From contig JBEPZV010000004.1 in the NCBI GenBank assembly GCA_041640655.1, positions 1 to 46,714 of the forward strand: DNA of 46,714 nt, read 5' to 3'. A program made the position numbers. The stretch is from a bacterium. Lineage in GTDB: Bacteria > Acidobacteriota > Blastocatellia > HR10. How positions within the stretch are numbered: position 1 is the first letter of the stretch; each line of letters opens with the position of its first letter. Below, piece by piece: positions 36,007-42,000 of this stretch.

Positions 36007-39000
36007 GGAGACCATCTACGGCCTCCGCCGTCAGTTGCTGGAGGAGGCCGATCAGCGAGATTACATCCTGAGCCTGGCCGAGGACTTGCTGGAGGACTTG
36101 CTGCAGCAGTATCTGAGCGATGAGGTCAGCCCGTCAGAATGGGACTTCAACGGTCTGAAGATCGAGCTCCGGCACATTTACGGTTTCGACTTGGAGGCCG
36201 AGGTCCCCGACTATGAGCAGCTCGGGCGGGAGGAGCTGAAGGAGCTCATCTGGCCGAAGCTGAAGGCGAAGTACGAGGAGAAGGAGGTGCTGCTCGGGCG
36301 CGAGGCCATGCGCTACTATGAGCGGATCATCATGCTCAACATCGTGGATGCGCAGTGGAAGGATCACCTGCTCGTGCTCGATCACCTGAAGGAGGGCATC
36401 GGGCTGCGGGGATACGCGCAGCGCGATCCGCTCGTCGAGTACAAGAAAGAGGCCTTCGCGCTCTTCGAGGCGATGCTGGACCGAATTGATCGGGAGACGA
36501 TCCGCTTCCTCTGGAATCTGCAGGTCACGGCCGAAGCGGCTCCGCGCGAGCGCCTGGAACGGCGTCGGCGCCCGCAGCGGGTGCAGTACGTGCATGCCAG
36601 CGTCAGCGCCACGGCCTCGGCGCGAGGGGAGCCGGAGAAGCCGCGCACGATCCGGCATGAGGGGCCGAAGATCGGGCCGAATGATCCCTGCCCTTGCGGC
36701 AGCGGGAGGAAGTACAAGAAGTGTCATGGCGTCGGATGAGCCCACGCGAGCCGGTCCCGTGCGCCAGCCTTTTGTCGGACACGCCCCGTCCCGCGAGTGC
36801 CCTCAAGAGGGACACGAGGCGGGGCGGGATTTTTTTTGCACTCTTGTTGAAAAAAAGCTTGACTCGCGATTCGGCCCTTGGCATATAATACTCCGCGTCA
36901 GCCGGAGGCTGGGGGGCGGAAAACGATGGTGCGAGAGGTCGAGAAGGTCGTCTTTATGTCGGAGAGGTCGAGAGATGGAGCGGTGATTCTTCGATCTAAG
37001 GAGGGACGGCTATGTACATCGGCAGAACGACTCAGAAGGTCATGACCTATGCGAGACCGCAGGTCCAGAAGGTGACGGTGACGCTTCCCAAAGCGCATCA
37101 TCCGCTGGAGGACATCCTCTCCAAGCCGGCCGTTCGCAAGGCGCTCCTGTGGATGACCCAGCGGGGGCCAGATGGGAAGTGCTTCCTCGAACGACTCTGC
37201 GAGAACTACGATAATCCGAATGCGGACTTCTGGACCCGCCTGAAGTGGTACTGGTCGAACAAGGCCATTGATCTCGCCCTGAAGAAGGCGGGTCTGGATA
37301 AGGAGACGATGAAGAAGCATCTGTTCCACCACACGCCGACGGTGAAGTCGCTGGCACTGACGGCCAAGAGCATCGGGACCTACGGGCTGACGGTGCCACA
37401 GCGGTTCACGGCTCCGCTCTTCGTCGTGTGGAACATCACGCAGGTGTGCAATCTGAGCTGCAAGCACTGTTATCAGGACGCCAAGCACAAGCCGATGCCC
37501 GATGAGCTGACGACGGAGGAGAAGCTTGATCTCCTCGACCAGATGGCCGATGAGTATGTGCCCTTTGTGGCCTTCGCCGGAGGCGAGCCCTTGGTGGCGA
37601 AGGATCTGTGGCCCGTGCTGGAGCACTGCAAGAAGCGGGGGTTCCATGTGACGATCGCCACCAACGGGATGCTGCTGACGCCGGAGATGTGCGCCCGGTT
37701 GAAGGAAGTGGGCGTGAAGTACATCGAGGTGAGCATTGACAGCATCAATCCGGAGGAGCATGACGAGTTCCGCGGACTGAAGGGAGCGTGGGAGCGCTCG
37801 ATCCAGGGCATTCGGAACGCCGTGGCGGCGGGCATTCGGACAGGCATGGCCACCTGCTTCACCCGCGAGACCGTCCACACGGTGGATGAGGTGGTGAAGT
37901 TCGCCATTGACCTCGGCTGCAGCACCTTCGCCCACTTCAACTTCATCCCGGTCGGGCGCGGCAAGGAGATCATGCATCATGATCTGACGCCGGGGCAGCG
38001 CGAGCTGCTCATGCGCAAGCTGCAGCGGCATCTGGCCGAGGGGAAGATCAGCATCATCTCCACGGCGCCGCAATTCGGGCGCTCTTGCATCATCTACGGT
38101 TCTGAGGAGGGAGTCTTCGCCACCGGCCACGCGGGGAAGGGCGAGGGGAAGAAGACGCTCGTGCTCTCGCGCTACATCGGCGGATGTGGTGCCGGACGAT
38201 GCTATTGCTCGATCCAGCCCAATGGGATCATCAATGCCTGCGTCTACATCCCCTCCGAAGAGGTGGGGGACATTCGTCGGCAGAGCTTCAAGGAGATCTG
38301 GGAGAACGCGCTCTTCAGCGTCCTCTCGGATCGAGAGGATCGGGGCGATCACTGCGGCGTGTGCGACTATCGGCACTACTGCGGCGGGTGTCGCGCCCGT
38401 TCGCTCGCTTATACCGGGGACATCCAAGCGGGCGATCCCGGATGCGTGTACAACGCCCATGAGTGGATCGAACTGACGGCCGGGGCGGATTCGGTGATGA
38501 CGAGCCATTTCGCCATGCCGAGCGGATTCAGCCTGAGCGCCGGATGCGGCAACGGCTGCGGGACATCAGTCCAGACGCCGCTGGTGCAGTTGAAGGGACT
38601 CCGGCAACAGGCCGAGCAGTTGGCCCAGATCGTGACCTCGGGAGTCGTCCAGGCCGCCGTCCGCGCGGGTGAGATCTCGGGCGTCCCCGAGGAGGAGGTC
38701 CGCGATTTCGATGAGGTCGTGGATCGGCTCAGCTCGCTCTTCACGAAGAATTGACGCGCTCGCGGGCTCGGGGATCGCGCGATCCCCGGCCCGATCTTCG
38801 GAGGAGGAGCCCGATGACGCCGCGATCGCCCATCAACGGCCTCCGCTTCCGGTTCATGTTCTTCGACTACATCTACATGCTCGGCGAATGCCTGCTGGGG
38901 ATCAGCGAGCTCCACGTCAAGATCCAGCTCGTGGATCGGTATTGTAATAAGGTGCGGCATAACCTCCAGCTCCTGCATCGCAAGGGGGCGAGCCGTGCCG

Positions 39001-42000
39001 AGATGCAGGAGTTCATCCGCAAAGAGAATCAGGAGCTGCTGGCGGGGTTTCGTCATCACAACATCTTCTACGACAAATATCGGCTCCGGATGATCGCGAT
39101 CCATCACGCGGGCACTCAAGGGGAGTTGCTCGTGGACGACGTCTACAACGGCTCCGCGTATGTCGTGCCCGTCAAGCAGACGATCGATACGCTCCTCACG
39201 CATGTCTTCGACAGCACCCCTGTTCAGGAGATGGGACTCTTCGAGAAGGAACGGAAGGTCATGGGGCTGACCAGCTCGTTGGATCCGAAGCCGGGAGAGA
39301 CCGCTCAGCGCGTGCTCCTGGAGCTTCACGAAGCGGCTCGAAACATCCACGTCTATGTGAAGAAGGAGAAGTTGCAGAGCGTCGAGTATTTGGCTTCGGG
39401 GAAACCGGTGATGGATCCTCACGTGATCGTCGAGGCGGAAGCGCAAGAGACGGAGAAGGACCGTTTCCTGAAGGATCCACTCATTCGCGAGGTGTTCCCC
39501 GAATGGAAGGGGGCGACGTTATGACGGAGGCTGAGCGGATTCGAGGCGATCCTGCGGGTCAGCCGGTGAGTTCGGAGGGCTCGCGCAAGGAACCGACGCA
39601 AGTCACGCTCTCGGTGATCGGGGATGTCTCGGTGGCGGCGTCGGAGGCGATGGGGATCAGTGAAGCGCCGAAGGCGATGACGTGGCGGACATCAGCCCTC
39701 TTCTTCATCCTCGCGTATGCCCTCAGCGTGGGGGTCGGATGGCTCGTGCTGGGTGAGATACCTCTCTCAGCGATCGCGATCGTCGCACTCGGGCCGGTGA
39801 TCCTCGCGACTGTCGCCTTCTGGCGATGTCGCCTCTGGCGATTTCGAGCCAAGACGTGGAAGCGGCAGCTCGAGATCATGGAGGAGGCGCTCTTCTCGCT
39901 CCGGTACGAGGCGGCGAATGCGGCCAACGCCATTCGAGCGAACCTCATCGGGTTCCGGCTCGCGAACCCTCAGGTGCTCATGCCAGAGCATCTGGACGTT
40001 ATCCAGATGGAGACCGAGCGGATTGATCTCGTCGTGCAGAAGTCGCAAGATCCGATGAGCTGGAAGGGACGGAAGCGAGAGAGTCAGCCGGCCTTCGATG
40101 CTCAAGAGGCGCGGAGTCGGATCAATCTGTGAGGCCCAGCGTCTGGAGGACGTGTCGTAGATAGACCCGACTTCGCGCGGCGTCGCGCAGAGGGGCGACC
40201 TCGGATTGGCCGAGATCCACATCCTGCTCGATGACGATCCAGCCCTGATATCCCCATGCGCTCAGTTCTCGAATGAGCGCGGGAAAATCCACCACTCCAT
40301 CACCCAGTGGGCAGAAGAGGCCTTCTCGAACAGCTTCGGCGAACGTGAGCGGTTCTCGCCGGACGCGCTCGAGCACTTCCGCGCGGACGTCTTTCGCATG
40401 AACGTGCCAGATGCGCGGCCCATAGGCTCGCACGGCTTCCACCGGATCGCCCCCGCCGTAGACATAATGGCCGGTATCCAGGCAGAGGCCGATCAGCTCA
40501 GGATCGGTCATGGCCAGGAGCCGAGCGACCTCTCTCGGGGTCTCGATGAATGTCCCCGCATGATGATGGAAGGCGGCGAGCAATCCTCGCGCGCGGCATG
40601 CTCGAGCGACCTCGTGGAGGAAGGCCACCGCCTCCCTCCACTGCGCTTCGGTGAGCTCATCGGTCGGCGTGACGCGCCCGGCGATGGCCAGACGGCGCGG
40701 CGTGAGCGCGTCGGCCAGCACAATGAGCGTCGCGCCGAGGGCCTGCAACACGTCGGCGACACGTAGGACGTCCTGGAGCCCATGCTCGAAGCGCTCCGGT
40801 TCCGAGAGCGGAATCGGGACGAAAGCCGTGACCAACTCCAGCTGACGCCGCGAGAGTTCCTCTCGCAGGAGCACCGGATCGGTGGGCAAATATCCATAGG
40901 GGCCGAGCTCCGTCCCCTCGTATCCGGCCAGGCGCATCTCGTCAAGGACCTCCGAATAGGGACGTCGAGCGCCCAACCCTTCGACTTCACAAATCCCCCA
41001 GCTCACCGGAGCCGTGGCGATCTTCATGGGATCCCTCCTTCTCTCAGGAACTCGTCCGCATTCTCGCGCGTGACGAGCGTCGTCCCCGTGTCAATCTGCT
41101 TCTCGATGGGCTCTCCGCGGAGAACCCGGATCGCCGCCTCGACAGCGCGTCGGCCCATCTCGAACGGGTGTTGGGCGACGACCGCATGCATCCGTCCGGC
41201 CTTGACAGCCCGCACGGCCTCTCGTGTCGCGTCGAATCCCACGAGGATGATCTTCCCCGTCAGGTTCCGAGCCGCGATAGCTTCCATAGCCCCCAGGGCC
41301 ATCTGATCGTTCGTCGCGAAGACGGCGCGCAGGTCCGGGTGCGAGGTCAAGATATTCTCCATCACGGTCATGGCCAGCGCCCGCTCGCTGTTGGCCGGTT
41401 GAATGGTGACCAACTGGATACCGGGCGCGCGCGCGATCGCTTCTTGAAATCCGGCCACGCGATCCTCGTGAGCGGCGACGCCCAGGATGCCGCGAATGAC
41501 GGCGACTTTCCCCCTCCCGCCGAGCGCGCGCACGATGTATTCACCGGCGAGTCTCCCTCCGAGCCGATTGTTCGTCCCGATATAGCTCAGCTTCTCCGGC
41601 CAGGGGGCATCCGTATCCACCAGGAGCACGGGGATTCCGGAAGCGCGCGCCCTTTGAAGTACGGGGATGACCTCGGCGGCCCCCGCCGGGGCGACGATGA
41701 GCGCCGAGACCTTCTTCAGGATTTGATCTTCCAGGATGGCCACCTGCTGGTCAATATTGATCTCACGCTCGGGAGCGAGCACGACGACCTCGACCTCAGG
41801 GTGCTCGCGCGCGGCTGCCTCGGCTCCCCGTTTCAAGGTGAGCCAGAATTCGCTGTCCAGGGCTTTGGTCACAACGGCGATGCGGTGAGCTTTCATCGTC
41901 CCCGTGCGGCGGCAGCTCTCGCCTGTGAGTGCGAGGCAGACGCCGACGAGCAGAAGTCCCATTCCTATGCCGTACCGACGCTTCCCGCTCATCTGCGTCC

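Follow-up and report, generated by a model that had tools for sequence, protein, structure and literature searches.

The gms locus

Does the radical SAM gene in the 46,714-nt window analysed here (contig JBEPZV010000004.1, from a hot-spring bacterium of the Blastocatellia order HR10) encode a GMGT synthase (Gms), and which lipids would such an enzyme bridge? Three co-oriented genes make up the locus: ORF1 (gms; 37012-38754, +), an intact radical SAM/SPASM protein of 580 aa; ORF2 (38814-39524, +), a soluble orphan of 236 aa; and ORF3 (39521-40132, +; alternative start 39503), a two-helix membrane protein of 203 aa whose start overlaps the stop of ORF2. The three-gene arrangement described in the initial annotation is confirmed, and the ten genomes that carry gms are also those that carry ORF2 and ORF3. 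A TTGACT-N19-TATAAT sequence upstream of gms (36859..36889, +) is promoter-like and represents a putative promoter, which the promoter scan did not call because it permits only 16-18 nt spacers. Both hexamers are retained in 5/5 near-identical gms loci and are absent from the matching place in three more distant loci.

All three ORFs were matched without differences by contigs from one RNA run, weak evidence given possible DNA carry-over, and the cassette was almost without cover in RNA runs X2 and X3; contig depth is unfit for ranking genes. The cassette could be a low-use relic that yields little or no bridged lipid and forms no meaningful hot-spring source. Its partner genes are patchy, and carrying the genes is often a poor guide to whether a cultured strain makes ether lipids. 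However, the reading frame is intact and free of stops in 10/10 gms copies from the order, the promoter-like site is conserved and, weakly, the RNA-library contigs are exact, and we consider a relic improbable.

Assignment of ORF1 to the Gms clade

ORF1 encodes the radical SAM motif CxxxCxxC (C146/C150/C153), an N-terminal extension of ~130 aa, a variable C-terminal tail and a SPASM region (392-478) with C392, C397, C399, C410, C448, C451, C457, C460 and C478. These SPASM cysteines, the predicted ligands of two auxiliary clusters, are each retained in ≥90% of the 99 rows aligned. ORF1 scored below every NCBIfam cut-off shown, with AhbD best (TIGR04545; 249.5 bits, cut-off 500) and NirJ2 also among the best. 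Both this score and the extension place it outside AhbD: Gms is recognized by an N-terminal extension of ~100 aa (COG4001), missing from AhbD, together with a length >400 aa, and ORF1 has both. It aligns from residue 35 with a same-clade A. profundus protein (36% over 454 aa, pairwise E = 2e-88), whereas AhbD-like rows lack that N-terminal stretch. In a quick tree without bootstrap, from which three truncated rows were dropped, the N-extended proteins including that of A. profundus formed one 65-row clade (SH-aLRT 99), and 12 short AhbD-like rows fell outside it. The A. profundus protein that anchors this clade is probably the published Ap-Gms. ORF1 also shares a 90% cluster with the acidobacterial proteins GBC78024.1 (98% identical) and MCS6817762.1, both listed as Gms with Tes in Dataset S4 of Garcia et al. 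2024 (PMC11214058), in which GBC78024.1 passed E ≤ 1e-80 against T. guaymasensis Gms; a third organism in that dataset has an 81% orthologue of ORF1. On these comparisons ORF1 is assigned to the Gms clade of radical SAM/SPASM proteins, and the earlier assignment is upheld by the clade tree and the N-terminal extension.

ORF1 shares the radical SAM and SPASM domains, the N-terminal extension and the clade with the Gms of T. guaymasensis, T. celer, P. furiosus and M. okinawensis (PMC11214058, PMC11186832). It differs from archaeal Gms in its bacterial host, where GGGP synthase was not found, in a C-terminal tail of ~90 aa and in its gene neighbours, which are ORF2 and ORF3 instead of gmm or grs, and from the A. 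profundus protein in having GGCGAG in place of GGCGCG.

Alternatively, ORF1 may have no role in lipids and instead work on tetrapyrroles in the manner of AhbD or NirJ, or mature a protein, with ORF2 or ORF3 as its target. Its best NCBIfam matches are AhbD and NirJ2, hemB lies 3.2 kb upstream of gms, and tight linkage to two small genes, as seen here, is typical of SPASM maturases. Yet the AhbD score of ORF1 is half of the cut-off, and the protein carries the N-terminal extension and groups with Gms; at L009, L010, L012 and L013, which are more distant loci, gms has neither hemB nor secA beside it, and Gms co-occurs with Tes. We give this alternative little credence.

The companion genes ORF2 and ORF3

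ORF2 had no match in Pfam or NCBIfam, and a search of 1.84 billion representatives gave three relatives at E ≤ 1e-10. It is found in 10/12 order genomes, each time beside gms, and in 8/66 ORF3 loci. Its predicted model is of low confidence (pLDDT 47.6), a fold search with this model returned nothing, and Atlas matches were all under 0.9. A single match suggesting an Ig-repeat protein was judged spurious.

ORF3 itself matched neither Pfam nor NCBIfam, had no match of note among PDB sequences and gave no significant fold match (non-specific, best Z 7.7). Its hydropathy indicates two membrane helices, a helical hairpin after them is modelled in the predicted structure (pLDDT 74.8), its Atlas neighbour is HisKA (0.97), and Pfam HisKA (PF00512) was matched in 3/35 members (best E = 6.7e-05). 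As modelled, ORF3 resembles a HisKA/DHp hairpin without a catalytic domain. It is like the HisKA/DHp region of sensor histidine kinases (PF00512) in placing membrane helices before an H-box-like motif and helical hairpin, but differs from these kinases in lacking an ATP-binding domain, in carrying Tyr or Phe at the His position, both within this order and among some relatives, and in being tied to a lipid-enzyme gene rather than a response regulator. The H-box position is Tyr129 (codon 39905-39907), not a phospho-accepting histidine; across 56 motif matches in 66 metagenome loci, this residue is His (42), Tyr (9), Phe (4) or Arg (1). An ATP-binding catalytic domain is lacking, and in 56/56 motif-matching copies the ORF stops 50-86 residues past the H-box. 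In 48/50 informative metagenome loci, gms is located just upstream of ORF3. ORF3 was not found in 5/5 Gms carriers tested from four other families, so it is not needed for Gms in general.

Distribution of gms and tes

Gms orthologues are present in 9/11 other genomes of the order (76-99% identity) and in 0/139 other Blastocatellia at E ≤ 1e-45, in agreement with the initial annotation. Its wider statement that the gene set is confined to order HR10 holds within Blastocatellia for gms, ORF2 and ORF3 but not for the Ger-like and Tes genes. The Ger-like gene, detected as DUF2229, is present in 11/12 order genomes but also in 12/139 other Blastocatellia, and over-cut-off Tes, described as limited to genus HR10, also occurs outside the order in G131, where the protein is only 39% identical and forms a long branch. 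Nor does the full set mark the order, as it is restricted to part of one genus and 4/10 Gms carriers lack canonical Tes. Canonical Tes is encoded in 6/7 genomes of this genus, including this one; its site, between thiC and an adenosine-kinase gene, is empty and gap-free in G007, and neither Tes nor a Tes-like gene was found in G001 (97% complete). Gms may have been in the order first, with canonical Tes reaching part of the genus later.

Gms homologues with 60-85% identity are common in other Acidobacteriota. Among 400 of these genomes, 15 encode Gms, 45 over-cut-off Tes and 14 both, and many of the 15 have no Tes-like match; the Fisher test for the pairing (P = 9e-14) is overstated, because the 15 genomes fall in four families and kin are not independent. 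Only a 320-bit Tes paralogue was seen in the L009 genome; Dataset S4 of PMC11214058 marks the organism as Tes 'yes', perhaps on account of that paralogue or of a gene overlooked here.

Lipid genes elsewhere in the genome

Tes is encoded on contig C6 and scored ~576.6-576.7 on NF045702 (cut-off 450), matching the 577 given earlier. It aligns with 7TOL (E = 7.7e-140), including the rubredoxin-like, radical SAM and auxiliary cysteine motifs. The description 'archaeal-type' fits the usage of the published authors, but the nearest relatives are acidobacterial (50-62% identity) and archaeal proteins reach 39-45%; a direct archaeal origin is disfavoured by these identities and by a quick 33-row tree. 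A Tes-like paralogue on C26 scored 323-324, below the same cut-off, falls in a separate long-branch clade in the quick 33-row tree, and may work like Tes. The PlsA/Ger trio on C47 comprises two BcrAD_BadFG domains and DUF2229 split across two genes (46% and 44% identical to a fused 1179-aa form); an orthologue of the third gene has no Pfam match, HGD-D (PF06050) included, and no diagnostic sequence motif is known to distinguish Ger from PlsA. An elb-like ether-lipid cluster, which the initial annotation missed along with the kinase-type character of ORF3, is located on C3. Three UbiA matches were also recorded in this genome.

A similar kit is found in Solibacter usitatus, a proven brGDGT maker with two Tes homologues (canonical and Tes-like) and split PlsAR (PlsA/Ger-like) genes (PMC10087280); the HR10 genome adds Gms and the elb-like cluster, and S. 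usitatus lacks ElbD. A search of the HR10 genome (89.8% complete) for PcrB/GGGPS gave no match, so an isoprenoid substrate is unlikely and isoprenoid (archaeal) GDGT synthesis was rejected.

Clustering of gms with lipid genes in related genomes

Canonical tes is not beside gms in this genome, and a second radical SAM/SPASM protein (42144..43256, +; 370 aa) is encoded within a sugar ABC cluster. In two other order genomes, G008 and G009, a single block unites gms with PlsA/Ger, the Tes-like gene and an acyl-CoA ligase; the block of G009 also holds PlsC, a DAG-kinase-like gene and ACP. The lipid-gene stretch described earlier as ~33 kb exists in G009 but spans ~18-22 kb. In both genomes an orthologue (66%) of the second radical SAM protein lies directly 3' of ORF3, a position that suggests a link to the lipid pathway. 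In these two genomes gms clusters with the Tes-like paralogue and PlsA/Ger, not with canonical Tes.

This clustering is consistent with a Gms that bridges lipids but not tetraethers: the Tes-like paralogue would supply an iso-diabolic-acid lipid with ester or mixed ether/ester linkages, and the H-shaped product would be missed by standard brGMGT scans. So are the carriers lacking canonical Tes, the empty site in G007, the mixed ether/ester analogues of Bacillota, and the iso-diabolic monoethers reported for cultured subdivision 4 strains. Such a substrate is nevertheless unlikely, as canonical Tes accompanies 14/15 Gms carriers across the phylum, many without a Tes-like match, and most genomes of this genus.

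Proposed pathway and implications

Our preferred reading, drawn from sequence and held at a probability of roughly 60%, is that Gms bridges fatty-acid-derived membrane-spanning lipids. It is favoured by the clade and intact cysteines of ORF1, the co-occurrence of Gms and Tes in the phylum, the G008 and G009 blocks, the kit of S. usitatus, in situ brGDGT production in hot springs and, weakly, the RNA contigs; counting against it are the order carriers without canonical Tes, the absence of both Tes forms from G001, the tie of Gms to obligate anaerobes in archaea and the lack of hot-spring brGMGT reports in the literature searched. Branched acyl lipids would be converted to ethers by the PlsA/Ger trio or the elb-like reductases, and Tes or its Tes-like paralogue would couple the tails. 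Gms would then take hydrogen from a methyl branch on each chain to form a C-C bridge, a reaction shown for archaeal Gms only. Gene linkage alone suggests that ORF3, with its membrane helix pair and His-less kinase-type dimerisation hairpin, may hold or regulate Gms at the membrane.

The pairing of Gms and Tes in this genus is already known. The proposal that these bacteria are specific candidates for bridged branched tetraethers keeps its Gms clade and its bridged membrane-spanning lipid but is already in print, and the accompanying caveat that the published dataset might include HR10 was justified, since the genus is listed with Gms and Tes. The available passages of PMC11214058 propose brGMGT synthesis by Acidobacteria with Gms and Tes, and make no mention of Blastocatellia, hot springs as a habitat, ORF2 or ORF3. 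In the literature searched, ORF3 and the patchy Gms/Tes pairing appear undescribed, although SI Fig. S15 of that paper (bacterial clusters) may show ORF3 or a G009-type cluster. The searches found no assay of bacterial Gms or Tes, no pairing of GAL08 with GDGT or of GMGT synthase with a histidine kinase, and no report of brGMGT in hot springs, only the Garcia paper matching both terms; PMC8787282, noted earlier as having no hit for GDGT, never uses the word 'lipid'. According to a 2023 preprint, brGMGTs, which are used as palaeotemperature markers, have no known producer among cultured bacteria. In hot springs, brGDGTs are made in situ, mostly at ≤70 °C. GAL08 peaks at 65 °C, with 7-29% of reads near 65 °C, and looks microaerophilic, whereas Li et al. 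tied Gms to obligate anaerobic archaea. The literature treats the identity of the acidobacterial enzyme for iso-diabolic acid as an open question.

A more speculative proposal, doubtful but worth entertaining, is that in a subclade of acidobacterial Gms the enzyme forms a dedicated two-part unit with ORF3, a kinase-derived membrane protein that would anchor or switch it; most relatives would have a His form open to phosphorylation, and the thermophiles of this order a locked Tyr form. In this order the unit would first have acted on lipids of the Tes-like paralogue, which is nearly universal and would then be the iso-diabolic-acid synthase long sought in Acidobacteria; the resulting lipid may be an H-shaped ether/ester. 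If so, this lipid should be sought in springs at 65 °C that are rich in GAL08. The GAL08 lineage near 65 °C provides a setting in nature for such tests, as well as thermostable enzymes for a first bacterial Gms assay, and the finding that the Tes-like paralogue is linked to PlsA/Ger is relevant to which enzyme makes acidobacterial iso-diabolic acid.

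Placement of ORF1 in the Gms clade

ORF1 (gms, 37012–38754, + strand) lies downstream of secA and is followed in the same orientation by ORF2 (38814–39524) and ORF3 (39521–40132), the ORF2 stop overlapping the ORF3 start. It carries radical SAM and SPASM domains and falls under every NCBIfam cut-off shown; no family was found for ORF2 or ORF3. Base composition of the ORF1–ORF3 region approximates that of the remainder of the window, and a TTGACT-N19-TATAAT site 5' of gms is kept in 5/5 close loci. One RNA run yielded contigs that match ORF1, ORF2 and ORF3 without differences, and one contig spans ORF2 and ORF3; this does not prove transcription. 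By eye, positions 36785–36838 after secA form a putative terminator, with a GC-rich inverted repeat and a run of T; the scan gave no call. Elsewhere in the window, two tRNA-Ser genes (32156–32348) lie between a deaminase-like gene and dnaX, and a 276-aa protein with heptad-like repeats (45865–46698), presumably nuclease-like in its tail, resembles the product of a gene upstream of gms in locus L010. The entire region is also present, at 75–96% protein identity, in a probably mislabelled record titled ‘uncultured Clostridia bacterium’ (L007).

In the definition of Garcia et al. (PMC11214058), Gms separates from AhbD and is extended at the N terminus. In a quick tree of 77 rows (SH-aLRT as support; three truncated rows dropped), 65 extended proteins formed one group (SH-aLRT 99) that excluded the 12 short AhbD-like rows, and 38 acidobacterial-type rows formed one group (SH-aLRT 97). 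The extended group includes a protein of A. profundus, a GMGT producer (PMC11214058); this protein, presumably the published A. profundus Gms, shares 36% identity with ORF1 over 454 aa, starting at residue 35. The cluster cysteines of ORF1 are all conserved. By sequence, ORF1 is a member of the Gms clade; it is real and intact, and probably a lipid-bridging enzyme.

The main text of PMC11214058 counts 31 Acidobacteria with Gms, most with Tes (tetraether synthase), and proposes brGMGT synthesis. Its Dataset S4 has rows for ‘bacterium HR08’ (GBC78024.1) and ‘Blastocatellia bacterium SKYG8’ (MCS6817762.1), both with Mss absent and Tes present. Because these accessions share ORF1's 90% cluster (HR08 protein, 98% identity to ORF1), the Gms-plus-Tes headline is already in print and the pairing in this genus already catalogued, as the initial annotation had cautioned in allowing that the dataset might include HR10. 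The hot-spring framing was not found in the literature examined.

Distribution across Acidobacteriota

The three ORFs co-occur in the same 10/12 order genomes. The initial annotation had confined the lipid gene set to order HR10, which holds for gms and ORF3 (0/139 other Blastocatellia searched) but not for DUF2229, the Ger-like marker (11/12 order genomes and 12/139 outside). Over-cut-off Tes, likewise assigned to genus HR10 only, was detected in 7/151 class genomes: six of this genus, plus a divergent G131 protein (L165:7810-9363; 488 bits, 39% identity to our Tes) whose long branch lies close to archaeal rows. Weaker Tes-family matches are nearly universal (143/151 at E ≤ 1e-60). The class tallies count one unpublished genome (G129), on which no conclusion depends. 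Many Gms homologues at 60–85% identity occur outside Blastocatellia, some named Terriglobia, Acidoferrales or Bryobacterales. Among 400 other Acidobacteriota, 15 encode Gms, 45 over-cut-off Tes and 14 both, with three candidates per genome scored in part of the searches.

Candidate ether-lipid supply and partner of Gms

Two candidate ether routes are encoded in this genome. On contig C47, a pair of BcrAD_BadFG domains is encoded alongside DUF2229 and a third subunit, an arrangement described in the literature for Ger and PlsA, which are not distinguishable by sequence. An elb-like cluster on C3 (about 98–111 kb; L191:1996-15253) encodes a HAD and fatty-acyl reductase fusion, a second reductase, two acyl-CoA ligases, ACP, DAG-kinase-like and PlsC proteins and a 2Fe-2S protein. 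GGGP synthase was not found in the genome. The Tes on C6 strongly matches the solved M. jannaschii enzyme and places among acidobacterial Tes (50–62% identity), not archaeal ones (39–45% to four). Genes for a 2-oxoacid dehydrogenase E1a/E1b/E2 lie 3 kb from it (L193:7771-11229), and this enzyme could supply branched-chain primers.

Four genomes (G001, G007, G008 and G009; 94–98% complete) have intact gms and lack canonical Tes. In our genome and in G005, Tes sits between thiC and the adenosine-kinase gene; in G007, the deepest-branching member of the genus, 155 bases (L203:3234-3389) separate these two genes, with neither N nor Tes remnant. The simplest history is that Tes arrived in part of the genus once gms was already there; repeated Tes loss would be a less simple alternative. 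The initial annotation's single ~33-kb lipid-gene stretch exists in G009, although its size is about 18 kb: ACP, acyl-CoA ligase, DAG-kinase-like, PlsC, Tes-like, radical SAM and TetR genes and the PlsA/Ger trio are followed convergently by radical SAM, ORF3, ORF2 and gms. G008 has the same order, broken at a contig end. A lipid role for the Tes-like paralogue is supported by a fused PlsA/Ger gene or PlsA/Ger-like pair directly upstream and co-oriented in G107 (L161:3670-13147), G032 (L162:6577-14671) and G062 (L163:2365-14544), that is, in at least 3/12 Ger-bearing Blastocatellia outside the order. Further radical SAM genes lie 3' of the Tes-like gene in G107 and G062, one B12-binding by score (G062). 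A simple partner story is opposed by G001 (L042, L208), where gms is present together with ORF2, ORF3 and the three Ger genes but neither a Tes nor a Tes-like match was found, through either an assembly gap or real loss.

ORF3 as a companion of Gms

Hydropathy indicates two hydrophobic helices in ORF3, followed in the structure model by a long helix and a return helix. Its Atlas neighbour is a HisKA cluster (0.97) and 3/35 family members match PF00512; fold searches gave no confirmation of HisKA likeness. Among the matches listed, the H-box residue in 56 motif matches is His (42), Tyr (9), Phe (4) or Arg (1), with no catalytic domain 3' of it in any. The metagenome sample comprised at least 66 loci, 16 being too short upstream or without position; gms lies directly upstream of ORF3 in 48/50 informative loci among the matches listed (47 passed the filter and L109 was added when re-checked). 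ORF2 is rarer (8/66 loci among the matches listed) and remains an orphan. ORF3 was not found in any of five Gms carriers tested, which represent four other families, and is therefore a subclade-specific companion of Gms; we infer that it would serve as an anchor or regulator.

GAL08, grouped with the HR10 cluster, is described as microaerophilic and dominant near 65 °C (PMC8787282), and brGDGTs are made in situ in hot springs, mainly at ≤70 °C. The residual value lies in ORF3, the Tes-independent gms carriers and a convenient field test.
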